Virus record (IMG/VR): IMGVR_UViG_3300050035_000720
Location: 1-56,095 of that record
Origin: a virus
Taxonomy: Duplodnaviria; Caudoviricetes
Length of the DNA stretch: 56,095 bases
Reading direction: 5' to 3' (one strand)
Part shown: positions 1-33,669 of the stretch, one piece after another
Numbering within the stretch: position 1 is the first letter of the stretch
Layout: each line of letters opens with the position of its first letter
Notes under the pieces: model-generated
The model's database searches: none
Told to the model about the DNA's origin: nothing
What the model saw: only the letters and a program-made list of their open reading frames with translations
Position numbers and translations under genes: made by a program

Positions 1-1140
1 ATGGTTGTAGGTTCAAAATCAAAAAACGGGAAAATGAGCTCAGATACCGGCTCTTTGGACGCATTATTAGGCGACGATGAAAATTACGTGCCCATTTCTG
101 ACGACTGGGCCGACATGTTCCGCGACTACATAAACGACAAAAAGGCTGAAAACAAACTCAATACGGTGAAATATTACCAACTACACGCTGGCCAGATTAT
201 CGAGTGGGCAGTCGAGCATAAGATCTCGCTGAAAGATTTTATGCAAAAACATATGAACCTTTTCGTGATCTACCGACGCAAGCAAAATGTCGACGAGGGG
301 ACAGTACGCAAGGCGCAGCAAGTGATAAAGAACATGATGGCCTTCTCCAAGCGTCAGGGCTACGTACAAATAAACAGGTTTACTGACTACAAGCTGACCA
401 AGCTACGCCGTAAGCGCCAGCGTTGGGTACCAGATGATCTGATGGTTAAATTCGTCGACGGCGGCATCGACACGTTCTACAGCGCGGCCAAGCGGCCGGT
501 AATGAAAAACCTCTGCCTGGCACACAGACAATTCTACCACCTTCGCTTTAAGGCATTCATGTTTATTTTGATCGATACCGGCTGCCGGCCAGACGAACTG
601 CTGAAAATTGAGATGCAAGATATTATCGAGTGTCTGAAGTGGCGGCCGGAAGATTCGTCAAAGCAGACACCGAAGCAGTTCCTCAAGGAACGACCCAGTG
701 CGGACGGCCCAAAAGTTATTTTTAGATATACAAAAAATGGCGATACCCGGGCTGTGCCAATCTCCCCTCTCTCACTCGATATCTTAAAAGCCTGGTTGAG
801 AAAGCGGCCGCAGCGTCACGGTGTGGCACCCACTGACCTAGTATTTACCGCGAACCCAGAAGGAGACACGGGCACAAAGGTAGACTACCGCGGACTACTC
901 CGGACGCTCTACAACGTTCAGGAATGGCTTGGTATCCCCAAGGTTGAACAATACAGCTTTTACTGCTTCAGACGCACCACAGCAAGCGCCATGGCCGCCG
1001 ACAATTTGGTTGATGCCAGGGACTATCTCGGTCACAAAAATATTTCGACAACCAACACATATCTTTACACCAGTGAGCAGAGCGTGGCCGACACTCACGC
1101 AAGGGTTGCACCGCTCGAACGGTTTCATCGTAAAAAGTGA
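1..1140 (+). CDS. int: Tyrosine recombinase/integrase
   Basis: DTGCRPDELL (catalytic R), TKNG (K), YCFRR (HxxR box with Y in place of H), LGHKNISTTNTY (H and catalytic Y); N-terminal helical core-binding region. Confidence 0.92.
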   Translation: MVVGSKSKNGKMSSDTGSLDALLGDDENYVPISDDWADMFRDYINDKKAENKLNTVKYYQLHAGQIIEWAVEHKISLKDFMQKHMNLFVIYRRKQNVDEGTVRKAQQVIKNMMAFSKRQGYVQINRFTDYKLTKLRRKRQRWVPDDLMVKFVDGGIDTFYSAAKRPVMKNLCLAHRQFYHLRFKAFMFILIDTGCRPDELLKIEMQDIIECLKWRPEDSSKQTPKQFLKERPSADGPKVIFRYTKNGDTRAVPISPLSLDILKAWLRKRPQRHGVAPTDLVFTANPEGDTGTKVDYRGLLRTLYNVQEWLGIPKVEQYSFYCFRRTTASAMAADNLVDARDYLGHKNISTTNTYLYTSEQSVADTHARVAPLERFHRKK

Positions 1141-1655: not shown

Positions 1656-2068
1656 GTGATCCATACGATCGAGCTGTTCAGTCTGAATACATTCGTTACC
1701 TTTGCCTATATTCAGACGGCAACCTAAACGCATTAAGAGACCTCGTTCATGAACAATCTATCAACTGGTGGAAGGACCCGGCTACGGGTGAGCCGATTGA
1801 TCGCAATGTTGGTGAACTGCTCATGCTCGCGGTATCCGAGCTGTCAGAAGCGATGGAGGGCCACCGCAAAAACTTAATGGACGACAAGCTGTCAAGCCAC
1901 AAAATGTTCGAGGTAGAGATTGCAGATTGTCTTATTCGCCTGCTGGACATGGCCGGCGGATTAGGTATCAACATTGGCAGTATCGTTGCCCAGAAGATTA
2001 TCTACAACATGTATCGAGAAGACCATAAGATCGAGCAACGACTTGCGCCTAACGGAAAGCGGTATTAA
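1652..2068 (+). CDS. MazG-like all-alpha NTP pyrophosphohydrolase
   Basis: ExxE...ExxD pattern: SELSEAMEGHRK...EVEIADCLIRLLD, typical of phage MazG-like proteins. Confidence 0.8.
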   Translation: MSDPYDRAVQSEYIRYLCLYSDGNLNALRDLVHEQSINWWKDPATGEPIDRNVGELLMLAVSELSEAMEGHRKNLMDDKLSSHKMFEVEIADCLIRLLDMAGGLGINIGSIVAQKIIYNMYREDHKIEQRLAPNGKRY

Positions 2069-2069
2069 T

Positions 2070-2939
2070 GTGATTACGACCGTCCTACGTCCCTTACTGC
2101 GTTACCATGGCGGAAAATTTCGATTGGCCCCGTGGATCATAGGCAATTTCCCTGCCCACAACGTGTATGTTGAGCCGTTTTGTGGCGCGGCGAGCGTATT
2201 GCTGCGCAAACAACGTGTATATGCCGAGGTGATTAACGACCTTGACGAGGATGTCGTAAACATATTCTCGATCATGCGTAATCCTGCACAGGCGAAGGAT
2301 CTAATAAACGCAATCGGTCTGACTCCCTTTGCACGTAAAGAGTTCGAACGCGCCTACGAATACTCGAATGATCCAGTTGAGCGAGCCCGCAGAATGGTCA
2401 TCCGTTCGTACATGGGATTCGGAGCTACTGGCACATTAGGGAACAGCACAGGTTTTCGAAACAACACGACCCGGAGGGGAACCACGCCAGCGCATGACTG
2501 GGCATGGCTGCCTTCCGCACTTGTCGAGATAGTAGATCGACTCCGCGGCGTTATTGTCGAGTCGCGTCCAGCAATAGAATGCATTCAGCAGCATGACGGT
2601 ACGGATGTTCTAATTTACGCGGATCCTCCCTACGTGCATTCCACGCGAAGCAAGGGCAATCCCTATTGCACCAAGCACATGTACCGGCATGAGATGACGG
2701 ACGAGCAGCACCGAGAGTTGGCGGACACGCTGAAACAGGTGAAGGCGATGGTGGTGGTCTCCGGTTATGACTGCCCTCTCTATGCCGAGCTTTATGATGG
2801 CTGGGAGTTTAGAAGCCGAATCGCCATGGCTGACGGCGCGAAAGAGCGTGTCGAATGCCTCTGGCTCAATAATGCTGCCTCTGAAAGGCTTGGACAGAAA
2901 TGTCTAAATCTCGGAAGATTAGAGGCGCCAACAAAATGA
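2070..2939 (+). CDS. DNA adenine methyltransferase (Dam/D12 class), orphan
   Basis: RYHGGK, YVEPFCGAASV (SAM binding), EVINDLD, YADPPY (catalytic); GTG start at 2070 right after the upstream stop; no partner endonuclease. Confidence 0.92.
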   Translation: MITTVLRPLLRYHGGKFRLAPWIIGNFPAHNVYVEPFCGAASVLLRKQRVYAEVINDLDEDVVNIFSIMRNPAQAKDLINAIGLTPFARKEFERAYEYSNDPVERARRMVIRSYMGFGATGTLGNSTGFRNNTTRRGTTPAHDWAWLPSALVEIVDRLRGVIVESRPAIECIQQHDGTDVLIYADPPYVHSTRSKGNPYCTKHMYRHEMTDEQHRELADTLKQVKAMVVVSGYDCPLYAELYDGWEFRSRIAMADGAKERVECLWLNNAASERLGQKCLNLGRLEAPTK

Positions 2940-5947: not shown

Positions 5948-6484
5948 CTACAGGTTTGCAATCACGAGAGATAGCCGATTAACTCTACCAAGCCAACCGG
6001 GAAGGAACTTTTTCAGTTTCGGATTTTCCGCAACCAGCGCATGGTAATGCGCCTCACGACGAGCCAGTATTCCCGCAGCCATTTCGGCATCGGAATGTCC
6101 CACCGCAAACCAATTGTGATATCCCATACTGGTCATCGTGTCGAAAACACGGGTAACAGGAATGCCTAGCACGCCCTGCATGAACTCTAAAGCTGTTCCG
6201 ACACCACAATTTACCCCAGTATCAAAGAGTGTATACGCGGTGCGACTGGCAACGTAGTCCCCGTGAATAGGCACCCAATAATATGCTTTATAAATAGCGC
6301 CGGCTTCGTCATCGGTGATGAACGCCACTGATCGCAGCGGAAGCCCGCTCCGGCGCCGCCAGACGTCATATTCACCCTGCTCGATGCCCTTGCAGGTTGC
6401 ACCGCCCGGATCATCCTGATCATCGCTGTATCCGCCCTCTGCCTGCAGTACAAAGGCTAGTGCTCCTGTGAAATCGTTTTGCAT
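5948..6484 (-). CDS. Endolysin, glycoside hydrolase family 108, with C-terminal peptidoglycan-binding region
   Basis: EGGYSDDQDDPGGATCKGI, YYW, FDTGVNCG and KFLPGWLGRV signature motifs. Confidence 0.92.
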   Translation of the reverse strand: MQNDFTGALAFVLQAEGGYSDDQDDPGGATCKGIEQGEYDVWRRRSGLPLRSVAFITDDEAGAIYKAYYWVPIHGDYVASRTAYTLFDTGVNCGVGTALEFMQGVLGIPVTRVFDTMTSMGYHNWFAVGHSDAEMAAGILARREAHYHALVAENPKLKKFLPGWLGRVNRLSLVIANL

Positions 6485-9367: not shown

Positions 9368-10399
9368 TTAATAACCTGTAAGATCAGCAGCCATCGCCAC
9401 CCACAGAGACTTAACAGCGTCATAAATGACCCTGACCATATGTGTTTTTGTCGCGACGGTGGTTACTGGTAATGTCACAGGACCATTGATGAAATTCGCG
9501 CCCCATGCAATCGCCTGAGCGGTCCCGTTATCGTGGATCCGGAACGTGTACTCCTGACCATCCGTCGGTGCCCCAGTCATACTGCTTGACATTGATGTTA
9601 TCGCCGTGGCAAGTGACGTGATGTTAAGCTGGTCACTTGCGGCAATATTGTAAGTCGGTGTTGCAGAGCTCACCACCGTAAGTATGCGCTTGTTTGATGT
9701 GAGTCCTGGCGGAAGGTCAGCATACACGAGTGCTGCCCAAAAAGGAGCCGTTGGTGAGCCCGACGCTGGCCCGCGAAGAAACGTATTTGCAACCTGTGGG
9801 TTAAAGGTGAGCGCAATTGTCCCGGAGGTCGTCACTGGGTCTCCAGTTTCAGCGAATGTAGAAGCAGGAGCGGTAACGCTAACACTCGTCACCGTGCCAG
9901 CGGCCCCACCAGGCGGCGTATTCCAGCTGCCATCTTCGCGCAGATACCGGGTAGTCCCTGCCGTGGCACCTGGATCCGGCACGATGCCAGCCGCATGAGA
10001 AGCGCCAGAAGCACCGAACACGACGCCAACAATTTGCAGTGTTTCGTCACCTCCAGGATTGGCGGTTGAGCTACTTAAACCTCCGGATGCGACAATCTTG
10101 CTAGATGCAAATCCAGGCGTAGAGTCCGACGAACTGTTCAAGAACTCGTAACTTGGGCTGGCCACCACGTTATTAGTGCTTACCGACTCCGAGGGGGTAC
10201 TCACACTGTTACTGGTCGTCGAGGTCGTCTTAGTTGAAGCTTGAGAGTTGACGGCCGCAAACTTCTGGAACGACTGTACATGATCGTACAGTTGCGCCTG
10301 TGTCATTCCGCGAGTACCCGCATAACTCGGTTTCGTTGGAGTTGCAGGCGACGTGCGAGTATTTGGCTTCCCTGTCGGTACGTTTGGATTACTTGCCAT
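9368..10399 (-). CDS. Putative tail fibre/spike protein
   Basis: Fibre-type motifs GIVPDPGATAGTTRYLREDGSW and GTVTSVSV...PVTTSGTIALT. Confidence 0.65.
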   Translation of the reverse strand: MASNPNVPTGKPNTRTSPATPTKPSYAGTRGMTQAQLYDHVQSFQKFAAVNSQASTKTTSTTSNSVSTPSESVSTNNVVASPSYEFLNSSSDSTPGFASSKIVASGGLSSSTANPGGDETLQIVGVVFGASGASHAAGIVPDPGATAGTTRYLREDGSWNTPPGGAAGTVTSVSVTAPASTFAETGDPVTTSGTIALTFNPQVANTFLRGPASGSPTAPFWAALVYADLPPGLTSNKRILTVVSSATPTYNIAASDQLNITSLATAITSMSSSMTGAPTDGQEYTFRIHDNGTAQAIAWGANFINGPVTLPVTTVATKTHMVRVIYDAVKSLWVAMAADLTGY

Positions 10400-13300
10400 T
10401 ATTTCGGCCTCGAAAGTTGTCCCATAATGCCCAGCCGATTAGCTAGCATTGCATCCGCCGGCGTCGCTTCTCGCGACCGGATAGCAGCGAGTACTCTTTG
10501 CATGATGAACGGCCTCCATGTCTGCCTGAGCTGCACTGGCTGCTGCTGATACGCCTGCAGTACTTGAGATATCGGCAGCGCATTGACCGCCTGTATCATT
10601 TGTGCTGGCTGCGGTGCCGTCCTCATTTCAGCATTTACCGCAGCAGGTGATGCCGATGCGTACGATGTGCCCTGACCTGGTGCGTTTCGGTCAATGATCG
10701 CCTGCTGTTCAGGTGTGAGTGCTATAGGTGATCGCTGCAGCTTCTGCTCAAGGTAAGGCTTCAATAACTGCTGATCCTGTGTCGACGCATTCTGATAGAA
10801 TGTCTGCTCTGCAGCAAGTGGTAATTCACGAAATTTCGTAACCACGGGGTTGCTGACTGCATCTCTAAGCGAATCTTCAATCTGCATTTTAGAGGCATGG
10901 CCAGACCGTATAAGTTGACCAGCTTCGGCGCTTACATCCTCACCTTTCTGATGCCGTTGAACGATGTCCTGTATTGTCGCATTCACGCCAGGCTGGATTA
11001 CTGCTTTATGCGCTGCAGCTGCAGTATCAGCGAGTCCCAGCCCTGTCATGTCTGTTGCCGGTTGAGTTAGCCCACGCGGCAGGAACGTATTGACAATGTT
11101 CTTTGCAAACTGCGCGGATCCGCTCATAGGCGACTGCCCTTTTGGTGTATAATCGGCATTTGAGCCATAACCTGCTTTTCCAAGTAATGCGCCGGCTACC
11201 GGGTTTGCGGTGGCAGCTACAGAAAGTGCACGATTTTCTACCTGGTTTGCGTAGCCTGGCTCTGAAGGTGGAAGAGTATGCTCGAATTGCGGCACGTTCT
11301 GTCCACTGCTTCGATCTCTAAGGCTGCTAAGGTACGGAGTAATGCCGCCTGCAGCTAGAATGTCATTCAGTAAAGGGCCGCTGGTAAACGGCTGAGAAAG
11401 TCCGTTGATCTGGCCGCGCAGCGCTTCTTCTCCCACCATTCCCGGTGTCGCGCCTTCCTGATAAGCATTGTAAGCATTGCGTACACCAAGGGCATTTAAT
11501 CCCCTCGAAACAGTCGGATTCATTATCGCAGTGCTTACTCCGGGTTCTTGACCTTTTTGAGCGTTCTCCAGTTTACCTATTACATCGGAGACTCCGGGGA
11601 ATGCCTTGCCGAGCCTCGTATCAGTTCCAACAGGAACAGTGAGAAACCGGCTCTTCTTATCATCAAACGGCAGATGTCCGGTCTGAATTGCGTATAGCGC
11701 CGCCCATGTTCCGATCAGTGCCACTGGCCCAGCGATAGCCTGCTCGAACATTTTATTAGCAACCTGGCGGCCAAGGGCAACACCCTTAGTAGGCAGCGTG
11801 TTTACATCCCAAAATCTGGTATTCGCTTCGATGCCCTGCTTCATAAACGTAGTGCCGGCCACTGCGAACGGATTACCAAGCGGATGCTTGACTAGTCCTC
11901 GCACAACAGAATTTTGCAACACTCGGTTGTATTGACCAACCGTGTCGGTTACATATTTGGCAAGTTGCGCCGCCATCTCCGGATCTTGGTATGAACCGTT
12001 TGGATTTGTCGGCAGCGGTGCGTCCGGATCCAGTCCGACCATAGCCTTAGCAGAGCGGTAGAGTGCAATGCGAGTCCGGACATCCATGCCTCTGTCTCCA
12101 AATAGCAGGAACTTCGGATTGGTCGCAAGCCTAGTATTGCCAACCGTTACGCCACTAACCGGCTTTGTGCCAAGTAGTTCAGCGACTTTGGGATCATTGG
12201 TCAGACTGCCGTATCTATCACTAAGAGCACCACTGCGGGCCATCTCCTGGAGTGCTACGGCGTTCCTGTCCGGATCGTTATTTGCGACCTGTGCAAATCG
12301 CTTAGCCATGTTCTGCACGCCGCACTCGCCCCCGAGGATGTGAACCAAGTTAGGCCCCGCAGATTTAATGAAACCATACGATAGGTTGAATACGTGCGCT
12401 ACTCCCGCCTGCGGAGCAGCTAGACTAATCGTTGTCGCGGCCCGGGAAAGAATGTTCTCCGGCGTGTCATCGTCACTGCCCCATCGCTCATAGTCATGCG
12501 TCAGGACCGGACCTGATTCTTTCTTCAGCCAGTTCGGAACATAGACCGATTTACCCTTAGTGCTAAACGGAACCCCATCAGCACCGACCTTGCGGCCGCC
12601 ATATTCAATGGCAGCAAGCGATGCCGGATACTTTACGCCGCCGACGTCGATAGTTGCCTGGTCGTGAGAGTTTCCGTACTGGTCCTTCTTGCTTACGGTA
12701 GTGATCCGCTGCATCTGAGCTTCGTCGCTCGGATCCACTGTTAGCCCGTCGTTTACGATACCGCGCACAAATGCAGCCTGGCTGTTTCGGCGAAGCAGTC
12801 CAGACACCTTGCTTGCCAATGCGCCGGGGGTGCTGTCGTATTGCTCAGCCTGGCCAGTGGCAAAACGGTTGTGAATATTCTCGGCTGGCTCCATAGCTGG
12901 TGATGGAGTGCCAACAGGTCTTAGTGAACCATCTTGCTTGAACACTGACAGTGGGTAGTAAGTCTTGAGCGGCCCGAGGTCCTGCGAGAAGACACCTTCA
13001 TTGCTAGCATGGCTTTCCGCGATGTGTGGCTCGATCCGATCTTTGTAGATCTGGAGCGCAGTCTTGAACTTTGGATCGTTTACGGTGTTATCGTAGTGCA
13101 GAGGATTCCCGAACATCGTCGGAACGTTCTTGGACGCTCGATTCATAGTACTGGCAACAAAGTTATTCAGGTGAGTTAGATCGCCGGTCTCATTGGCATA
13201 TTCGATCTGCGAATGCAGCTGAGCTGCGATATTACTCCATCTTCCGCCGCCACTGCCAAGTGCTTCAATTGGTTCTGCATACTTGTCGTCCAGCGCAACG

Positions 13301-16300
13301 ATCGTGCCCTTGTTGTCTCGCGTAACAAGATCCTCCGGATTAGCAGCTCGTGCATTGGCCGTAAGTGATTGCCACCGAGCACGTACACCGCGGAGTCTGC
13401 TTTCAGTCAGTACTTTTCCGAAGCGGTCTAGGTCTGCAGAGGTACCGAGTGCATGCACGACGTCGCCCATTGCATGCTTCATCAGCACGTTTGTCCTGGC
13501 AGTTACAGCACCCAGTTCCTGGAATCGGCTGGTGGTTTCCGGGGATGCATGCTTCTTCAGGTAACTGCCGGCAGCGTCAAAGGTATTTCGTACTGCCGGT
13601 TTGGCATTTCGCACTGCATTGGCTAGATCCTGCAGATTCGGTGTTCCAAACTTCCAGTTAAACATCGGAGACTTTGCTCCTGATCCACCGGCCATAACTG
13701 GTGAAGACGCGAGCGGGCTATCACTGGTCGGTTCTCCGGTGATAGACTCATGGCCTTTGCCGCCAAGCATATCATCAAAGAGAGTCTTCATCGTTGGATG
13801 AAGTTCTCCGGCGATTGGACTATCGATTGTATTCTTGTAGATATCTGTCAGCCAGCCCTTGAAGTTATCGAACACTTCCTGCAGCTGTGGGCGCGGAGCT
13901 TTCCCGTTGGCTAGATACGCCTCAAAGTCACGCGCGAAATTCTCTTCGTGGTCAGTCGTCCATTCGCCATTTTTAATGCCGTAGTAATCTTCAGCCCTGG
14001 CCAGCAGATCAGGTGTGAGCGACTTACGAAAGAAGTGTGCAAACTCGTGCGCCGCGGTAGATACGTCAGCTGATTGGTAAAGCTTTATGAGTGCTTGACC
14101 GTCTTTGCGAGACCACTGTATACTTCCCTTTTCACCATCAGGACCAAGTTGTGAGTACTTATTGCCTTTGATTGCGTCAATTATTTCTGACGGCCCAGCG
14201 CCTGCAGCAGGTTCCGAGCCTTTTTGAAATAGTGGCTTACCATCTTCTTGCAGATGATAGTAAGCGTAGTCCGCCAGCTTGCGGGCATTGACTTCGTTTG
14301 GGCTATTTCGGTAGGCGTTGTAATCACCGTTGTAAAGATGCTGTGCACCTTCGTCTGTCAACCTGCCCTTCTTATCCTGCAATGCGTGGGCGGCTTCGTG
14401 AAGGATAGTGTGAAGCGGCCCATGTTCATCCATATCATGCGCGGTGGTGATATCCTTCCAGTTATGATCATACAGGCCATAAGCACCGCGCAGTACTGGA
14501 TCTTCATTCGGAAGATTGGTAATACGGGTATTAAGAACATCCTTGAACAACTCCCTGATTTTAGGGCCCTTCAAGTAATCACCAAGTGTTCTGGGAGATT
14601 CTACATCTCCGAACTTCTTGGATGATGCCCAGTCCAGCGCCTCGGGGGTGAACTTGTCGGCGTAGTCATACGGCTTGTTGAATGGCGCACTCTGATGAAG
14701 AATGTTAGGATCGTTAGGATCGAAGTTACCATTATTACCGATAGCGGACTTGATCTGTGTGCCATTGAATGCTATAGCAACATTGTGCGGCTCGCCTCCT
14801 GTGATGCTTCCGCCAATATGGGTTATGCCGTCGTACCCAGCTTTTTCGAGCACTTCTCGTACATCCCATTTGTCTCCTAAGTGCCTACAGAGAACTTTAT
14901 ATAAGTCCTTGCCAGTACTTAACGGGCTGATATTATTATCGTAAAGTAAAGATTCTGGCAGGCCTTTTTCTTTGAGCGCTTTGACAATCGACTTGGCACC
15001 GTCCAGTCCGATGCTCTTGTCTATGTCGAATGGATTTTTAATGGAAAGGTGAACTGGATACACACCTTTTCCTTTTCCAAGCGCCTGTTTTATGTCGTTA
15101 GTGTTCTCATTATCGATTGAAACACCATAAGTTCTCGGCTTTTCACCTGCAATAGGCGATCCATCACGGTTAACCCTAACACCGGTAACATAGCCGGTTT
15201 TCGGATCATACCCTTTTACAATTTTATCGAATCCTCCATAGGATCTAACAATGCGTCCTTCAGAATAGTATGCCGCCTTATCTGCAGACGTGATTGATCC
15301 TTTGGTTGTTTCAGCATAACCAGATGCAGTCTTTGGGCTATCGGTGAAGTACGCACCGGAACCATAGAGTAGATGATTGTCTCCCGCGTAGTTTGTTGTA
15401 TCAAATTCTGAGTGCCTCGCGCCTCCAGTGCCGTGATACATAACCTTTGGTTGCTGCTGGTCGTCTACTATCCGAGACCTAAGGAACCATTTTTTAAATT
15501 GCGGAGTGTTGACTTGGCTAGGTTTTTGGAATAATTTCTCGTCAGATTGTGGTATATCTGGATTAGCGAGCGAACTACTCCGAGCGGAACCGTCATCGGT
15601 CGACGTATGCGCGACGCCCTCTGTTTTAGAGGTAGCACGTTGCTTCGGAGCGCTCGTGCCTTCATCGTATGCCTTAACAGTCGCAGTAAAAACTAGTTTT
15701 TTGCCTTCACTTACTCCTGTTACAATCTCAATACGCTTGCCTATTTGCTTTTTGAATACTATGGCAGGAACTGTGCCGCCTTGAACAGTATTCTTACCTT
15801 TTTCTATAGTGTCTGCATCTTTTATCACATCATATATATGTGTGAAATCTTCCCTGGTCATGTGCACACGGTTTTCTTCGTGTTCATCTTCTACACCCCT
15901 ATTGGGGCCACCCTTGTTCGAATGATGGACAGTGCTCGTATCAGCAACTAAAGTAGATCCTTCTGTTTCTAATCCGACGGCGCCCCTGATACGATTAGCA
16001 AGTTCGTGATCTACTATCGCTATAGGCATTTTTGCATTCTTCGAAGATACGCCACTCTTTCCTTTTTGCCCTACTGCCAGGTCGTAAAGCTTTCCAAGCC
16101 TGTCAGCAATATAGCCTCGCGGATCTTGTGACCATTCAGTAATTTGTTTAGGTATGAGGATGTTGCGAACATCCTGGCTAATAGGCATATTCAGACTTTC
16201 TCCATTCCTAATCCTATGGTTTCCCAGGGAATCGGTTATAAACGTTACGCCTCCAAGACCTGGGACATAATGATCTTCACCTTCGCCAAATGGTGACTTC

Positions 16301-19300
16301 TGGAACAGCGTTCCGCTAAATCCGCTATTCGGCTCCGCTGCTCCCACATTACTCCGAACATACACGCGAGTCTTGCCATCAGGTGAAACAATGGCAGTAA
16401 GGTGATGATCGCCGTCGACAAGGTTGTAGGTAATGTCTCCGTTCGCTCCGTGTAGCACTTGGCCATGACCATTGGCCGCAGCCTTCTCCATGTCGCTGAC
16501 GGTCATCTGTGCGCCGTAGTTGACCCACTTGCCGTTAATCTTTGCGCGAGCCGCATTCTTGACATTGCCAGAAGCTGACAGGGAGCCGTCTGACTGCCGT
16601 TCGGCGTTGCCGATTACATCCCTGATAGTTTGAGGAATACGCTCGTCAGACTGAAACGGATGAACTTCATCTTCAAATTGCAGCCTTCCTGTAACACCAT
16701 TGGGAATAGCCTTAGTATTGGCAGTAGGCTTTTCAGTTGGAGGCTGCAGGCGGAAATCTTCTACATTGTCATCGCCGAACAAAGACCCAGTCGGTGCACG
16801 TTGGAAGAGCTGGCCAGTTACGTGGTCTTCTTCTTCGGTTGGGATAACTGTTCCCGCTGTTCCCATCGCTCCGGCGGCTGACTGTGGGTGAATTGCTGCA
16901 CCTTCGCCAACAGGTTCGCCTGCTGCTGCAGTCGTTGCTGTATCTCCGGTTGTTCGCTGGCCAAGGGATCTGATGATGTCGGGTGCGGCTGTACGGAACT
17001 TGTTAAGGGCATCTTGTTTGACGACATTTGGCGACTCTCCTTTTCCTAGACGGCGTGAAGCTTCGTCTAGTATATCTGATACTGGACCAGACGAGTTCTT
17101 GGTTCGGTCGAATATCTCCTGAGCTTGATTAGTTTCATGAGCTTTCTGCGCACTTGTCTCTGCGTCGATCACGTTTTTGCCGGTAGCAAAGGCCTCGGCA
17201 TTCGCGGTGTTACCGGCGGTCTTTAATACATTTGCGGTTCGTCCGAGTTGTCTGCGAATATAATCAGCAACACTGGCTCGCTCAAAGAACAGGCTCTTGT
17301 CTGCAGGGGTTGCATCGTCGCCAAACATATTCGGCGTGGATACTCCCGCTGCACCCCTTGGAGCGCCTGCAATACTGTCGGCCATTTCGGATATTTGCCC
17401 GTTGGTCGGTTCCTTGCCTGACTTCTCCAAGTCGTCCATCCGACGGGTAAGCAAAAGCTGATCGTCCGGGTTCGGCAACTTACTGCCGATAATCGATGCA
17501 CGTTCTGCAGGAATCTCTCCGCGAACGACCTTGGAAAATATCGAAGGATGAAGCTGTGAAAGTGCAATGCCCTGTTCCGCTACTTTGCCCTTCAGAGGTA
17601 TGCCCTGGTCGGAGATTTCCTGCGGCGTCATCTTCGAGTCTCTAAAGAACTGCGCAGCGTCAACTGCCGTACCTTGGCCTTCAGCAATGTTTACCAGTGC
17701 GCCGTGGGCCCTGGCCTCGCCTGGAGTTGCAGCATCGAGATATTGAACATTGACATTCTTAACGCCAAGCCGATTAGCAAGCGCGAGACGATTATGCCCG
17801 TTGACTGCGTAGGTCTGTCCATCCGCTGGATCACGCCATACTTGCAGTGCGCCGGCGGAGTTGGGATTCCATGATTTTACACTAGAAAGCGATCCGGTCT
17901 GACCACCATGTCCTTTGATAATCTTGTACTGAAAACGATCAGGATCAACCTGGATCGAGGAAGTAGGCACATTAGCAAAAGCGGCAACTGGCTGTCCTGA
18001 TGCAACTTCATGTTTAGACGCAGTACTATCCGCAAACAGATCATCTGTCTGCGGCTGCGCTGCATGCTCCTTAACAGCATTGTTAATATTATCAACTAAC
18101 TGCTGGCCTTCCGTAGTCTTGGCTGTCAGTGTTTCGCCCGGCACGACACCTCGGAGATTAGCCTCCAGGTATTGAGATGGAGACTCGCCAGTTTTAGCAG
18201 CTCTAGTATTCAGGTAAGCGTCAACCAATGTAGAGACTGCACGCGCTCCATCCTGTGGTATCCCGGACTCAACAAGCGCGTTAGCAATATCGGCGGTCGA
18301 AGTGATCTGCACAGGCTTCCCATTCGACGCGGCGAATTTCGCGTGGCTGACCAATACTGAGTCCGGATTGCTGAAAGCGTCATCTAAATTGTTGGCGGCC
18401 GCCTGGGACGGCTCGAATGCGGATAGTGGGTCGTTAGTATGTTCCGCTGCGCTTGCTCCGAGAGCTGTATTGGATGCGGCTTGAGCTGCTTCCTTCGCAC
18501 TCTGAATACCTTGAGCCCTCTCTTTTGTCGCCTTCAACACACTGCCCAAAGAATTGATTGGCTTCGGGGCTTCGGGCACATTTGCCTTAGCTTCTGCTTC
18601 CTGCATGGCCGCAACACTGGACGTTTTCAATGGTGGTGCTGTCGTTTTTGAGATACCAAGTACTTGCTCAGTATTCTGCGTTAATTCATGTGATAGTTGC
18701 TGTGAGACACTTCCGTCAGCGTTCCGAACTGACTTATAGACTTCGACGCCTTCAGGTAAGGAGTGGATTCCGTTAAGCGGTGCTTTATACCAAGTCGGAT
18801 TAACGTGTATCGTTGTGGCCGACGATGCGATAGTGCTGTTCGGCAAGACGAGCGGCTTGTTGATAGGATCGGCTTCTGGTGCAACACCGCTCTCTGGCTC
18901 AATGGTTGTGCGTTCACCCTTCGTAGAAAATGCGCGTAGCAATTTGCCTTTCAGGTTAGGGATACCGCTGCTGGCTAGGAACTGTAGACGGTTATTAGTG
19001 TCGACCAGCAGTTGAGCCTTGGCAAGTGATTCGGTATCTCCGGCAGCACGTAGAGCGTTGATCTGTGCGTTGTTGGTAATGATTGTACGGTTTAATGCCG
19101 CCGGAGCATCCATGATACGAAGCGCAGCGCCCAACGCTGATCCGCCGACAACCATACCGGTATTTGCTAAAAATCCGGCAGGGTCCGCGCGGTACTCTTG
19201 ACCATACGTCCCATTGATAGATCTGCCACCGGCTTTTATTGCTTGGAGTACACCTGCGTCTGCAGACTGCCCTATTCTGCTGGTGGCATTGTAAAGCACA

Positions 19301-20178
19301 CCGCCAGGTTCGGCGCCAGCCAACGGAGCAACATCGCCCTTCAAGTGCGCCTGCGACAATTCGGGCGTGATATCCTGTGTCGGCAACTCCCCGCGCTGGG
19401 TACGGTAGATTGACTCAAGCCCCATCAATGCGTGAAGAACTCCGCCAGTCTCTATTGGCTTCTTTGTGGGTCCATTAAATGCGCCTGGATAAACAATTGA
19501 TTTGCCTCGCATAGCGGTGTCTATTGCATCAGACGTGATACTTCCAGCAAGGTTTAACGCACCCGTTCCCAATCCTTCAATTCCCTTCACTATCGGCGGC
19601 ACTGATGGTACATCCATCGTGTAGCCTGCGATTGTTTCGGGATGTGTAGATCCCGGCTTGAAATCGTTTATAATGTCAGTAGCGACTTCGCCAAATGAAG
19701 GTAAGCCCGCTGAGACATGGTGACCTGCTATCTTAGGCTGATGTACCTGTCTCACTTCGTTATTTACATTACTCTGGAACTGCGTAGCCATACGAGACGC
19801 TTCGCTATTGTTAGACGCCCACGGAATGCCGCCGCCTGCAGTACTGGGTGTCATTCCGTGCGGAGTGTTTCCCGCAATTGGATCGTTGCTATTGCTTCGG
19901 TACGGATTGTTATCGGCAATGATCTGGGACGGTGTGCGCTGCGGCGGTGCGCCAGACTGAACCGAATATCCTCTTTGATTTAGTTCAGTGTCTGTAAATG
20001 TCGGTGTAACAGGAGGCGGTGCTCCGCTCTTCACCAAAAGGCCAAGTTTCGCAAAATCAGCATCACTCATCCCGGATGTTGCCTGAGGTTGCGACTGCGG
20101 AGGGGCACCGTCCCTCACTGTATAGCCTTTTGACTGAAGCAACTCGTCGTTGATTGTTATTGGTCCAGTAGTTGACAT
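10399..20178 (-). CDS. Giant polyvalent (DarB-like) internal virion/ejection protein, 3259 aa
   Basis: ParB-like domain (AVNGHNRL), BECR RNase-like domain, ART-like domain (MYHGT..GAYFT..YDGI..QIKS), two HExxH motifs (HEAAH, HEFAH); third and largest gene of the ejection-protein cluster. Confidence 0.85.
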   Translation of the reverse strand: MSTTGPITINDELLQSKGYTVRDGAPPQSQPQATSGMSDADFAKLGLLVKSGAPPPVTPTFTDTELNQRGYSVQSGAPPQRTPSQIIADNNPYRSNSNDPIAGNTPHGMTPSTAGGGIPWASNNSEASRMATQFQSNVNNEVRQVHQPKIAGHHVSAGLPSFGEVATDIINDFKPGSTHPETIAGYTMDVPSVPPIVKGIEGLGTGALNLAGSITSDAIDTAMRGKSIVYPGAFNGPTKKPIETGGVLHALMGLESIYRTQRGELPTQDITPELSQAHLKGDVAPLAGAEPGGVLYNATSRIGQSADAGVLQAIKAGGRSINGTYGQEYRADPAGFLANTGMVVGGSALGAALRIMDAPAALNRTIITNNAQINALRAAGDTESLAKAQLLVDTNNRLQFLASSGIPNLKGKLLRAFSTKGERTTIEPESGVAPEADPINKPLVLPNSTIASSATTIHVNPTWYKAPLNGIHSLPEGVEVYKSVRNADGSVSQQLSHELTQNTEQVLGISKTTAPPLKTSSVAAMQEAEAKANVPEAPKPINSLGSVLKATKERAQGIQSAKEAAQAASNTALGASAAEHTNDPLSAFEPSQAAANNLDDAFSNPDSVLVSHAKFAASNGKPVQITSTADIANALVESGIPQDGARAVSTLVDAYLNTRAAKTGESPSQYLEANLRGVVPGETLTAKTTEGQQLVDNINNAVKEHAAQPQTDDLFADSTASKHEVASGQPVAAFANVPTSSIQVDPDRFQYKIIKGHGGQTGSLSSVKSWNPNSAGALQVWRDPADGQTYAVNGHNRLALANRLGVKNVNVQYLDAATPGEARAHGALVNIAEGQGTAVDAAQFFRDSKMTPQEISDQGIPLKGKVAEQGIALSQLHPSIFSKVVRGEIPAERASIIGSKLPNPDDQLLLTRRMDDLEKSGKEPTNGQISEMADSIAGAPRGAAGVSTPNMFGDDATPADKSLFFERASVADYIRRQLGRTANVLKTAGNTANAEAFATGKNVIDAETSAQKAHETNQAQEIFDRTKNSSGPVSDILDEASRRLGKGESPNVVKQDALNKFRTAAPDIIRSLGQRTTGDTATTAAAGEPVGEGAAIHPQSAAGAMGTAGTVIPTEEEDHVTGQLFQRAPTGSLFGDDNVEDFRLQPPTEKPTANTKAIPNGVTGRLQFEDEVHPFQSDERIPQTIRDVIGNAERQSDGSLSASGNVKNAARAKINGKWVNYGAQMTVSDMEKAAANGHGQVLHGANGDITYNLVDGDHHLTAIVSPDGKTRVYVRSNVGAAEPNSGFSGTLFQKSPFGEGEDHYVPGLGGVTFITDSLGNHRIRNGESLNMPISQDVRNILIPKQITEWSQDPRGYIADRLGKLYDLAVGQKGKSGVSSKNAKMPIAIVDHELANRIRGAVGLETEGSTLVADTSTVHHSNKGGPNRGVEDEHEENRVHMTREDFTHIYDVIKDADTIEKGKNTVQGGTVPAIVFKKQIGKRIEIVTGVSEGKKLVFTATVKAYDEGTSAPKQRATSKTEGVAHTSTDDGSARSSSLANPDIPQSDEKLFQKPSQVNTPQFKKWFLRSRIVDDQQQPKVMYHGTGGARHSEFDTTNYAGDNHLLYGSGAYFTDSPKTASGYAETTKGSITSADKAAYYSEGRIVRSYGGFDKIVKGYDPKTGYVTGVRVNRDGSPIAGEKPRTYGVSIDNENTNDIKQALGKGKGVYPVHLSIKNPFDIDKSIGLDGAKSIVKALKEKGLPESLLYDNNISPLSTGKDLYKVLCRHLGDKWDVREVLEKAGYDGITHIGGSITGGEPHNVAIAFNGTQIKSAIGNNGNFDPNDPNILHQSAPFNKPYDYADKFTPEALDWASSKKFGDVESPRTLGDYLKGPKIRELFKDVLNTRITNLPNEDPVLRGAYGLYDHNWKDITTAHDMDEHGPLHTILHEAAHALQDKKGRLTDEGAQHLYNGDYNAYRNSPNEVNARKLADYAYYHLQEDGKPLFQKGSEPAAGAGPSEIIDAIKGNKYSQLGPDGEKGSIQWSRKDGQALIKLYQSADVSTAAHEFAHFFRKSLTPDLLARAEDYYGIKNGEWTTDHEENFARDFEAYLANGKAPRPQLQEVFDNFKGWLTDIYKNTIDSPIAGELHPTMKTLFDDMLGGKGHESITGEPTSDSPLASSPVMAGGSGAKSPMFNWKFGTPNLQDLANAVRNAKPAVRNTFDAAGSYLKKHASPETTSRFQELGAVTARTNVLMKHAMGDVVHALGTSADLDRFGKVLTESRLRGVRARWQSLTANARAANPEDLVTRDNKGTIVALDDKYAEPIEALGSGGGRWSNIAAQLHSQIEYANETGDLTHLNNFVASTMNRASKNVPTMFGNPLHYDNTVNDPKFKTALQIYKDRIEPHIAESHASNEGVFSQDLGPLKTYYPLSVFKQDGSLRPVGTPSPAMEPAENIHNRFATGQAEQYDSTPGALASKVSGLLRRNSQAAFVRGIVNDGLTVDPSDEAQMQRITTVSKKDQYGNSHDQATIDVGGVKYPASLAAIEYGGRKVGADGVPFSTKGKSVYVPNWLKKESGPVLTHDYERWGSDDDTPENILSRAATTISLAAPQAGVAHVFNLSYGFIKSAGPNLVHILGGECGVQNMAKRFAQVANNDPDRNAVALQEMARSGALSDRYGSLTNDPKVAELLGTKPVSGVTVGNTRLATNPKFLLFGDRGMDVRTRIALYRSAKAMVGLDPDAPLPTNPNGSYQDPEMAAQLAKYVTDTVGQYNRVLQNSVVRGLVKHPLGNPFAVAGTTFMKQGIEANTRFWDVNTLPTKGVALGRQVANKMFEQAIAGPVALIGTWAALYAIQTGHLPFDDKKSRFLTVPVGTDTRLGKAFPGVSDVIGKLENAQKGQEPGVSTAIMNPTVSRGLNALGVRNAYNAYQEGATPGMVGEEALRGQINGLSQPFTSGPLLNDILAAGGITPYLSSLRDRSSGQNVPQFEHTLPPSEPGYANQVENRALSVAATANPVAGALLGKAGYGSNADYTPKGQSPMSGSAQFAKNIVNTFLPRGLTQPATDMTGLGLADTAAAAHKAVIQPGVNATIQDIVQRHQKGEDVSAEAGQLIRSGHASKMQIEDSLRDAVSNPVVTKFRELPLAAEQTFYQNASTQDQQLLKPYLEQKLQRSPIALTPEQQAIIDRNAPGQGTSYASASPAAVNAEMRTAPQPAQMIQAVNALPISQVLQAYQQQPVQLRQTWRPFIMQRVLAAIRSREATPADAMLANRLGIMGQLSRPK

Positions 20179-29457: not shown

Positions 29458-30195
29458 TTAACTTGTATGCTGCTCTCGGTCGCCAGTGTTCGGTGTCGTT
29501 ACCGCTGAATACCTAAGCACATTAGCAATATCTGTATCGCTGCGGAACACACGACCGAGGCAGTCGGATCCTATGCGCAAATATTCGGTATCGAAATCTT
29601 TTCCTCTTGCCTGCAGTTCTGGGCTGTCTCGACGCTGCAGTAATAACTTCGCACATACACCTACCGACAAGGCGTAATGCAGATCTGCGGGAAACTGTGG
29701 TGTATCGGTGCTGGAAACCAACGCTTGCGGAGTTACCAGTACAGAGCCGGCTACTGTAGCAATAGACGGAGGCGGTGCGCTAAGTCTCACACCCTCGAGG
29801 AAATCGTAATAGTAAAGCGGATATCCTGTCGTCGGACAGGCAAGCTGTGTCGGATCCCAGTTCGATATCGCTCCTCTGCTGGCATAATTCATCTGAGTTC
29901 CTGCATAACTCATGCTAAGTGCTGCGAACGGCACGTTGCCAGAGACTATGCTGCATGTCCACAGAGACCATTTTGCAAGGAACGCACCAGCTGGCCACGC
30001 ATACGAAGCATAGTCTTCAATCGGACAATAACTGCGGGCAAAGTCATCCTGCAGCTCGTTGATGTACGATGTCAAAACCGTATCGGTCGGCGTCGTCGGA
30101 GTACCCGACGTGCCAGGCATAAGCGCGAACTGGTTCGTATTCAACACTCGCCCGAGTCGGGTCAGTATGTCATTTTGCAGCTGTCCTAAGTTCAC
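29458..30195 (-). CDS. Head-tail adaptor (tail tubular protein A-like), paralogue 2
   Basis: MNLGQLQNDILTRL...GYPLYY...DTPQFPADLHYALSVG. Confidence 0.65.
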   Translation of the reverse strand: MNLGQLQNDILTRLGRVLNTNQFALMPGTSGTPTTPTDTVLTSYINELQDDFARSYCPIEDYASYAWPAGAFLAKWSLWTCSIVSGNVPFAALSMSYAGTQMNYASRGAISNWDPTQLACPTTGYPLYYYDFLEGVRLSAPPPSIATVAGSVLVTPQALVSSTDTPQFPADLHYALSVGVCAKLLLQRRDSPELQARGKDFDTEYLRIGSDCLGRVFRSDTDIANVLRYSAVTTPNTGDREQHTS

Positions 30196-32907: not shown

Positions 32908-33669
32908 TTAAAATCCAATCAGCGGATTTACTACCGCCGTATTGCCGAACCCGCCGTCCCACCAAGACGAGTACTCGTCGGCGTAAGCTGGAAGATTTGC
33001 GGCTGAGTTGTCGCCAATTCGATCCTGATAAGCCTGCTGCATCTGCTCACGGTACTCTTTCTCGAAGCCCTTAAGCCTGCGCATATTCCAGTCGGTAGGG
33101 TTCTGTTCACAGCGCATAATGCAGCCTTTGAGCACGACAAGGTCATGCAGATCGGTAGGCAGTGGACACTCTGCCGTAGGCGATGCCCAGCTGAGACCAG
33201 GAAGAATTGCGCCCTCCATGAACATTCCTGCAGGTGGTGGTCCTGCCGATGCGGTTGCACTGAAATTAGGTACCGGCCAAAGCGCGAAAGATGAAATTCC
33301 AAGCACCACATAAAGTTTAGGCAGCGCAGACGCAGGAGCCGAGCGCCATCCTGGGAGCCGCGAGTCCATAGTTTGCGGCTTCACCGGATTTAGCGTATGT
33401 GGATAGCCGTTCACGTCGTAAATGGTCAGTGCGACCTTCTTGTTTAAGATCGCCTGACCAAGTGGAACGGACGTAGGCGAAAGATAAAGAGCCTGGTTAG
33501 CGACTATATTTATGGGGCAAACACCATAGTCAGTTTTCAGCAGCTTGGCAACCTGATTGGCGGAGTTCGTGATGATGTCGTTAAGCTGCATGGGCGAACC
33601 GGACATGGGATCGCCCTTGTACTCGCTGATCCGATCCAGAATTGCCGCCAATATATGTTGCCTGGTCAT
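32908..33669 (-). CDS. Head-tail adaptor, paralogue 1
   Basis: MTRQHILAAILDRI...NQALY...PKLYV..FALWPVP...LPTDLHDLVV. Confidence 0.65.
   Translation of the reverse strand: MTRQHILAAILDRISEYKGDPMSGSPMQLNDIITNSANQVAKLLKTDYGVCPINIVANQALYLSPTSVPLGQAILNKKVALTIYDVNGYPHTLNPVKPQTMDSRLPGWRSAPASALPKLYVVLGISSFALWPVPNFSATASAGPPPAGMFMEGAILPGLSWASPTAECPLPTDLHDLVVLKGCIMRCEQNPTDWNMRRLKGFEKEYREQMQQAYQDRIGDNSAANLPAYADEYSSWWDGGFGNTAVVNPLIGF

Follow-up and report, generated by a model that had tools for sequence, protein, structure and literature searches.

The window analyzed here, which spans the whole of a 56,095-base IMG/VR provirus record, encodes on its minus strand a giant protein of 3259 amino acids (aa), P0001, in which a short glutamine-ending motif, L[FYH]Q, stands at the joints between predicted effector modules. 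In P0001 and its relatives the motif recurs at break-points of homology, and among the sequences compared it co-varies with an embedded family of predicted HExxH domains of the HEFAH type, named here MPT2, and not with the HEAAH-type domain of the same protein (MPT1). This pattern fits a portable peptide-level punctuation, read by something that travels with MPT2, and the simplest reader would be MPT2 itself, acting as a site-specific zincin. The reading that we favor, to which we give slightly less than an even chance, is that the L[FYH]Q sites are recognition or cleavage sites of an MPT2-type zincin. The explicit Gln-ending junction word that tracks the HEFAH domain is new here, while the idea of processing is already in print, as autoprocessing of polyvalent proteins by their metallopeptidase (MPTase) domains was proposed by Iyer, Burroughs, Anand, de Souza and Aravind (Iyer et al. 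2017; PMC5512222).

The motif at the module junctions of P0001 and its relatives

The ADP-ribosyltransferase (ART) module matched ART-PolyVal (PF18760) with 64.6 bits against a gathering cut-off of 31.2 (hidden Markov model [HMM] envelope 1554-1826), the RNase module matched PBECR3 (PF18812) just under its cut-off (E 1.1e-6, 29.0 bits versus 30), and the HEAAH module (MPT1) gave DUF6782 at 19.1 bits against a cut-off of 27. Among the module identities named in an earlier prediction made on this DNA (the original prediction), the ART stood, the RNase-like module narrowly missed its family threshold, the HEAAH peptidase had this weak match as its sole counterpart, and the ~165-aa module matched no family. 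With an ART-PolyVal domain, a PBECR3-like core that is 1 bit short of the cut-off, and two HExxH domains, P0001 is by its predicted features a member of the polyvalent-protein class (Iyer et al. 2017). Its parts, with AlphaFold2 (AF2) modeling results where these bear on a part, are as follows.

10399..20178, minus strand: gene of the giant polyvalent protein P0001, 3259 aa (stop-free open frame; Pfam ART-PolyVal above cut-off)
18004-20178, minus strand: N-terminal 725 residues, no Pfam family (Pfam search)
17041..18003, minus strand: residues 726-1046, domain of the PHROG 21 'portal' C-terminal extension (phrog_21, E 3.9e-65)
16801..16809, minus strand: junction motif 1, LFQ (L1124) followed by R, GQLFQR; coil in a low-confidence AF2 model
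16309..16800, minus strand: Module A, residues 1127-1290; no Pfam family and no usable ESM Atlas match
16300..16308, minus strand: junction motif 2, LFQ (L1291) followed by K, GTLFQK; coil between predicted secondary-structure blocks, low confidence
15535..16299, minus strand: Module B, residues 1294-1548; its PBECR3-like RNase core spans 1389-1500 (PF18812)
15526..15534, minus strand: junction motif 3, LFQ (L1549) followed by K, EKLFQK; 6 residues before the ART start TPQFKKW
14701..15525, minus strand: ART-PolyVal ADP-ribosyltransferase module, residues 1552-1826 (PF18760)
14692..14700, minus strand: junction motif 4, LHQ (L1827), NILHQS; Q-type end of the ART tail FDPNDPNILHQ
14233..14691, minus strand: MPT1 module, residues 1830-1982, with HEAAH at 1927-1931 (window 14386-14400); weak DUF6782 match
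14224..14232, minus strand: junction motif 5, LFQ (L1983) followed by K, KPLFQK; predicted local distance difference test (pLDDT) score <50 in an AF2 model
14152..14223, minus strand: linker, residues 1986-2009, ending in YSQ (15-row MPT2 alignment A1)
13762..14151, minus strand: MPT2 core, residues 2010-2139, with HEFAH at 2044-2048 (window 14035-14049); A1 invariants and AF2
10402..13731, minus strand: C-terminal 1110 residues, lacking both a family match and L[FYH]Q (Pfam and motif count)

The five motif positions given originally were recovered exactly in the 3259-aa open reading frame (ORF). LFQ occurs four times in P0001 against 0.32 expected from composition, a count reached by 0.0002 of 5000 shuffles, and each of the four is followed by K or R. 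The five motifs are confined to residues 1124-1985, which make up 26% of P0001, and the other 47 ORFs of at least 100 aa in the window hold a single L[FYH]Q against 3.8 expected. The sixth L[FYH]Q of P0001, LYQ2033, falls within the HEFAH domain, on a predicted strand, and does not count as a junction. The codons of the repeat differ, as had been remarked before; the five Leu codons (CTC, CTG, TTA, CTT and CTA) are all distinct, and therefore the repeat is kept at the protein level. An AF2 model of residues 1100-1560, made without an alignment, was poor (mean pLDDT 38.5) and gave a weak hint that the three LFQ of this part lie in coil. Seven residues after LFQ1124 stands the word GSLFGDD (residues 1131-1137, window 16768-16788, minus strand); GSLFGDSD occurs in the relative P0004, and in P0062 and P0068 an LFR or LFG word comes a little ahead of LFQ, so that there may be a second recurrent linker word.

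Two sets of relatives were compared with P0001. A search with residues 1100-2150 yielded 78 large proteins, nearly all with ART-PolyVal, of which 72 remained as a non-redundant ART-selected set (73 with P0001). In these 73 proteins LFQ numbered 63 where 27.3 were expected, and LHQ 32 where 11.2 were. The MPT2-selected set comprised the best 148 new proteins, all of them metagenomic predictions, of the 7972 obtained with the MPT2 core as query. In the 148 proteins LFQ occurred 148 times against 40.5 expected, being present in 91 of them, and LYQ 95 times against 32.4, so that L[FY]Q reached 243 against 72.9. Among tripeptides with an expectation above 3, LFQ was the fifth most over-represented, while the other words of the top 25 were mostly those of the MPT2 domain itself, TPE, SPE and, at rank 17, LYQ. 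The excess was thus replicated in both sets (Poisson p <1e-28). Chance recurrence of the tripeptide, which is helped by a core of only three residues, was rejected by the shuffle and Poisson counts and is exceedingly improbable.

The sites in the MPT2-selected set fall into two groups. The first, 57 of the 243 L[FY]Q, stands at or just before MPT2; 40 lie 'inside' the core by projected coordinate, and in all 15 of these 40 that were inspected the motif comes 2-6 residues before the first strand, [KR]-G-x-hydrophobic. The second group, 186 sites in 102 proteins, lies away from MPT2, and 50 proteins carry at least two such sites, with a maximum of six. When a junction was measured as a position within ~20 residues of the start or end of a BLAST high-scoring segment pair (HSP), 65% of the 243 L[FY]Q sites of the MPT2-selected set were near HSP ends compared with 31% of all positions, and the control tripeptides gave 6-43% (the highest being QFL and LKQ with 43% and LFD with 41%). 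In the ART-selected set the corresponding values were 48% of 138 L[FYH]Q sites and 22% of all positions, with controls at 10-30%. The sequences downstream of the 186 MPT2-distal sites formed 97 clusters (70 of them singletons), and those upstream 104 clusters. The flanks of L[FY]Q are rich in G, P, D, N and T, and the residue after Gln is not conserved. Unrelated domains typically begin 4-12 residues past the motif, with words such as TPEFKxWFG of the ART, NLVAVHN or PTFYS. The original proposal that the motifs mark domain boundaries was borne out: in distant relatives, too, they stand where homology breaks off.

In BLAST comparisons of P0001 with its relatives, LFQR, LFSR, LYQ or alike were found just upstream of the start of the ART match (LFQ shortly before the ART start was seen also in P0004, P0006, P0010, P0017 and P0068), and ILHQ, ILKQ, ILMQ, ILFQ or IR[FY]S at its end. 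Module gain or loss at the motif, which had been offered as a check on homologues, was observed: P0001 has the HEAAH module inserted after ILHQ and ahead of PLFQK, a module that is absent from P0004, the closest relative by MPT2 (61% identity), in which the ART is directly joined to MPT2 via ILRQ (...IKSAIGNRGTFDPSDPNILRQ-NPADTKGSISW...). No HSP started before residue 1382, and only a few extended slightly past the MPT2 core, none of them beyond residue 2214; within the data compared, the N- and C-terminal parts of P0001 thus appear unique to its lineage.

Several words near the junctions were noted in addition. Before many junction motifs, ahead of both MPT2 and ART domains, stands a longer element, (I)TPEMRxxhxxGQPLF[QS], carried by P0005, P0017, P0023, P0056, P0064 and many of P0082-P0229, and this may be a helix and the motif joined as one portable linker cassette. 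Just upstream of MPT2 in P0001, PSEIIDAIKGNKYSQ (residues 1996-2010, window 14149-14193, minus strand) looks like a worn copy of an ART tail, resembling the tail PxQIKSAIGN...ILxQ of those relatives whose ART runs straight into MPT2; the insertion of the HEAAH module may have left this stretch behind as a relic. A beta-clamp-binding motif, the consensus of which is QL[SD]LF, was considered for the junction word and rejected, as position -2 is D/N/E/G and not Leu, and Q stands at -3 in only 18 of 185 cases.

The exactness with which modules come and go at the motifs between P0004 and P0001 could also reflect a recombination scar or a junction convention with no biochemical reader, kept as cassettes swap together with their linkers. 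The putative ART-tail relic PSEIIDAIKGN upstream of MPT2 and the recurrence of the longer shared linker element ITPEMRxxxxxGQPLFQ are in line with such an origin. On the other side, the codons differ at all five sites and the relatives are only ~25-60% identical, and nine degenerate bases cannot guide recombination; the tripeptide is kept even though its flanks fall into ~100 unrelated clusters; and a change of dialect along with the resident peptidase would not be expected of a scar. The cassette swapping that had been suggested earlier as an alternative is compatible with the data, but it leaves unexplained why the motif tracks the peptidase, and we consider a mere scar unlikely.

The HEFAH domain and its co-variation with the motif

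The HEFAH domain, which had been placed after the motifs, proved to belong to a large and well-conserved family. Three columns of A1, E86, H89 and E120, show no variation over its 15 rows, while H85 is kept in at least 90% of them; columns H85/E86/H89 and E120 correspond to HEFAH 2044-2048 and E2079 (window 13942-13944) of P0001, which makes E2079 a candidate third zinc ligand of a gluzincin-type site. A Gln stands directly before strand 1 of MPT2 in 14 of the 15 rows (Q51, at least 90% conserved), and its equivalent in P0001 is Q2010 of YSQ. In an AF2 model of residues 1960-2155 the MPT2 core, composed of two strands plus helices, had pLDDT values of 78-97, while the adjoining residues 1960-2009, including LFQ1983, were below 50. 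When the MPT2 core (A1 45-185) was co-folded with a 35-aa LFQ1291 peptide and Zn, the score was 0.00; as this was done without controls, it counts neither way.

To find members independently of the motif, phmmer was run with the MPT2 core only (residues 2010-2145, which include no junction motif) against 1.84 billion representatives, and 7972 were obtained at E<=1e-3. The predicted HEFAH zincin family thus has thousands of members, and it is without a Pfam model. A word-based search of proteins of 99-317 aa detected no stand-alone short MPT2 proteins, and the exhaustive MPT2 search gave a few short matches, which are possibly fragments. MPT2 is also present in cultured podoviruses, where it follows FYQ in bbp10 of BPP-1 (L002 3652-9810), LNQ in gp16 of Pseudomonas phage AF (L003 3022-9663) and LAQ in gp039c of Caulobacter phage Jess A (L001 7210-13329). 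These giant genes are labeled 'crystallin motif protein', 'hypothetical' or 'lysis protein', and their peptidase domain is unannotated.

The comparison of ART-selected proteins with and without MPT2 showed that the motif co-varies with the presence of this domain. The 44 proteins with MPT2 (query excluded) contained 107 L[FYH]Q against 38.6 expected, while the 28 proteins without it contained 25 against 20.5 (binomial p 1e-4). The word [IL]R[FY]S behaved in reverse, with 6 occurrences against 3.6 expected in the presence of MPT2 and 9 against 2.1 in its absence. The same was seen at a single homologous position, when ART tails were anchored on SAxGNxGxF: the tail ended in I-L-x-Q in 15 of 19 cases with MPT2 and in 2 of 23 without it, one of the two being an artefact of the regular expression (Fisher p 4e-6), and 11 of the 23 tails without MPT2 ended in I-R-F/Y-S-like words. 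Were the motif read by the resident peptidase, this change in the ending of the same ART, I-L-x-Q alongside MPT2 and I-R-F/Y-S where MPT2 is lacking, would mean that protease and sites co-evolve. The other HExxH domain of P0001, the HEAAH module MPT1, had no relative among the 78 homologues.

The nearest ART homologue in viral contigs, 51% identical, provides what can be read as a natural contrast case to P0001. It belongs to a 1941-aa protein (locus L005, 583-6408, plus strand) that carries a different HExxH domain, HEMLH, and zero L[FYH]Q, and no MPT2 was detected in this locus at E<=10. The flanks of its ART read ...GFGKAPEQTNTPQFKKW and ...DANIHAALPP.

Possible readers of the motif

In the favored reading, P0001 would be a string of effector enzymes, encoded last in the structural operon, the place where podoviruses keep internal or ejected proteins. 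The motif L-[F/Y/H]-Q, in which Gln is the residue best conserved, occupies flexible linkers, as a rule 4-12 residues ahead of the module that follows, and MPT2 would cut the chain at the motif, in cis or in trans. The pieces released would be Module A, the PBECR3 RNase, the ART, MPT1, and MPT2 together with the C-terminal body. The sequences show the motif, its excess, its place at the joints, its independence from the domains around it and its co-variation with MPT2. We infer that MPT2 has peptidase activity and binds the motif; the scissile bond, the moment of the cut (in the capsid or after ejection) and the packaging into virions are likewise inferred. Small zincins of phages and of integrative and conjugative elements (such as ImmA and IrrE/PprI) cut repressors at a single defined bond after a hydrophobic residue, which is a precedent and not evidence.

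A number of observations weigh against cleavage by MPT2. All the large sets are metagenomic predictions; the co-variation counts are uncorrected for shared descent, and the MPT2 label of the 72 proteins, taken from an iterated HMM, may have drifted for a few of them. For a specific protease, a core of three residues makes a short site, and the hydrophobicity of the flanks of the P0001 motifs is ordinary and non-discriminating (percentiles 0.26-0.45). L[FY]Q is present in 114 of the 148 MPT2 proteins and missing from the other 34, and in the cultured relatives the word varies (Jess A has LTQ and LAQ, BPP-1 has FYQ and AF has LNQ). No Pfam peptidase model matched MPT2 in any of the 15 members of A1, and Foldseek with the MPT2 model against the Protein Data Bank (PDB) found nothing at E<=0.001. 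In the structural comparison with VIA-align the best Z score of the model, 5.7, was to unrelated chains, and zincins came out weakly (lethal factor 4.8, PPEP-2 4.2, PprI 4.2, ArdC 3.8). The virion RNA polymerase (vRNAP) of phage N4 has an MPTase domain and yet is packaged unprocessed, and ArdC and TraC1 have MPTase domains and are transferred full length (Iyer et al. 2017); in the available parts of a 2026 paper on N4 (PMC13434306) HExxH is mentioned and proteolysis is not.

Part of this evidence would suit equally a linear motif or linker that is not cleaved, for example a handle for MPT2 or a partner in folding, capsid packing or tail threading, with the protein staying whole like N4 vRNAP. 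Such a role is a possibility, although a doubtful one. The full-length delivery of N4 vRNAP, ArdC and TraC1 despite their MPTase domains agrees with it, as do the weak fold matches of MPT2 and its lack of a Pfam peptidase match, which leave its peptidase status a prediction. The density of L[FY]Q is equal upstream and downstream of MPT2 (0.59 versus 0.65 per 1000 aa), therefore no polarity is evident. Against it, the repetition of the motif at each joint of unrelated modules suits module release better than a single handle, the invariance of HExxH and Glu in A1 speaks for a functional metal site, and LFQ1983 was not ordered against MPT2 in the AF2 model.

It could also be that the sites are cut by another protease, namely a phage head-maturation protease, the HEAAH module or a host protease. 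MPT1 sits between two of the motifs, which is in favor of its involvement, but it is the domain that has no relative in the 78 motif-carrying homologues. No prohead protease or any other protease family was detected in the 30 ORFs scanned of the 47 non-P0001 ORFs of at least 100 aa, and L[FYH]Q is absent from the major head protein ORF and from the two ORFs between portal and head; in this lack of the motif in capsid and scaffold-region ORFs the present case differs from head-protease-processed capsid cargo of the T4 or phiKZ type. We regard a cut by such a different enzyme as quite unlikely.

Returning to MPT2 as the reader, the broader reading would be that HEFAH-zincin polyvalent proteins are true polyproteins with a Gln-anchored cleavage code, the dialects of which switch with the resident peptidase. 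The code would then be a DNA-phage counterpart, by analogy, of the 3C sites of RNA viruses. We hold this view, including the analogy, with somewhat less than even confidence.

Provirus setting and kinship with known systems

The record has an estimated completeness of 75%, and the element is a temperate, podovirus-like prophage cut at the integrase. Its minus strand carries replication genes, terminase, portal and major head protein, followed by two adaptors and tail proteins. The tail genes precede four ORFs (879, 1157, 246 and 546 aa), after which comes, on the minus strand, the 3259-aa ORF, so that the gene order is of the podovirus type, with the giant ORF at the end of the structural module. 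The other features assigned are listed here.

1-1140, plus strand: integrase, open at the record start (left end of record)
1974-2939, plus strand: D12-class adenine methyltransferase, Dam-class (left end of record)
5948-6484, minus strand: GH108 lysin (left end of record)
29458-30195 and 32908-33669, minus strand: two paralogous SU10-type adaptor proteins, PF24175 (structural module)

The adaptor pair points to an SU10/Kuravirus-like tail. No tRNA gene was found in the 56,095-nt window. In BPP-1 and in Pseudomonas phage AF the homologous giant gene comes after genes annotated 'internal virion protein'. Packaging and ejection of the giant protein are plausible, because the gene order matches that of podoviruses, including BPP-1 bbp10 and AF gp16, an argument from gene position and from the annotations of cultured relatives. 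Searches for close relatives, aimed at measuring the conservation of the sites under purifying selection, largely failed: megablast against phages gave no match, tblastn against phages gave distant matches only, and related loci were found in no genome contigs and, in viral contigs, at the one distant locus L005. At its extreme N terminus P0001 has three tandem units of ~30 residues (residues 9-82, window 19933-20154, minus strand) with no family match, each ending in G-Y/L-x-V-x-x-G-A-P-P (TVRDGAPPQ, LVKSGAPPP, SVQSGAPPQ). The phrog_21 match of residues 726-1046 covers profile positions 1009-1327 of 1362, and the same residues have no match in Pfam; this domain may be ParB-like.

The arrangement of P0001 resembles that of several known multi-enzyme chains. 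Toxins of the MARTX type contain an internal cysteine protease domain that is activated by inositol hexakisphosphate (InsP6) and cuts inter-domain linkers after Leu, releasing the effectors. They share with P0001 an effector chain, an embedded protease and repeated linker sites; in contrast, their protease is of a different class, they are secreted bacterial toxins and not phage virion proteins, and no homology was found. The site of the rhinovirus 3C protease is LEVLFQ|GP and that of the coronavirus main protease (Mpro) is LQ|S/A/G. Picornavirus and coronavirus polyproteins thus have, like P0001, Leu-x-Gln or Leu-Phe-Gln at each joint of a multi-enzyme chain. Unlike the 3C/3CL enzymes, the candidate enzyme here is a zincin, and cleavage is here a prediction only; the residue after Gln is neither small nor conserved (K/R/S in P0001, E/S/G/R in relatives). 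A chymotrypsin-fold cysteine protease (3C/3CL) was detected in P0001 by none of the Pfam, NCBIfam and PDB sequence searches, Pfam returning three families only. The same operational analogy to the polyproteins of RNA viruses was drawn by Iyer et al. (2017).

The closest kinship is to the polyvalent proteins themselves, which like P0001 combine ART-PolyVal, PBECR RNase and HExxH domains in one polypeptide of a phage structural operon (Iyer et al. 2017). In contrast to the present case, the available parts of that paper name no cleavage motif and tie no peptidase family to one, and HEFAH here is without a Pfam peptidase match. DdrB of phage P1 is reported to be processed to a 76-kDa product (Iyer et al. 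2017). DdrB and N4 vRNAP are virion-delivered giants with an MPTase or HExxH domain, while the delivery of P0001 is deduced from gene order; neither of the two has a repeated junction motif described in the parts of that source available, and N4 vRNAP is unprocessed. A published account of an LFQ-type junction motif paired with a peptidase was not found in the literature, supplementary files being outside the search, and it may stand without comment in the supplementary alignments of Iyer et al.

The association of a three-residue word with one very large HExxH family makes the processing idea of 2017 directly testable, and cultured relatives are at hand in the Caulobacter Rauchvirus phages, Pseudomonas phage AF and BPP-1. 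Should the favored reading hold, phages with HEFAH-zincin polyvalent proteins would possess a portable release system for injected effectors, and possibly a new pair of a sequence-specific protease and its site. The boundaries of modules would then become definable for many unknown domains, and the mature effector sets of thousands of uncultured phages would be predictable from sequence.

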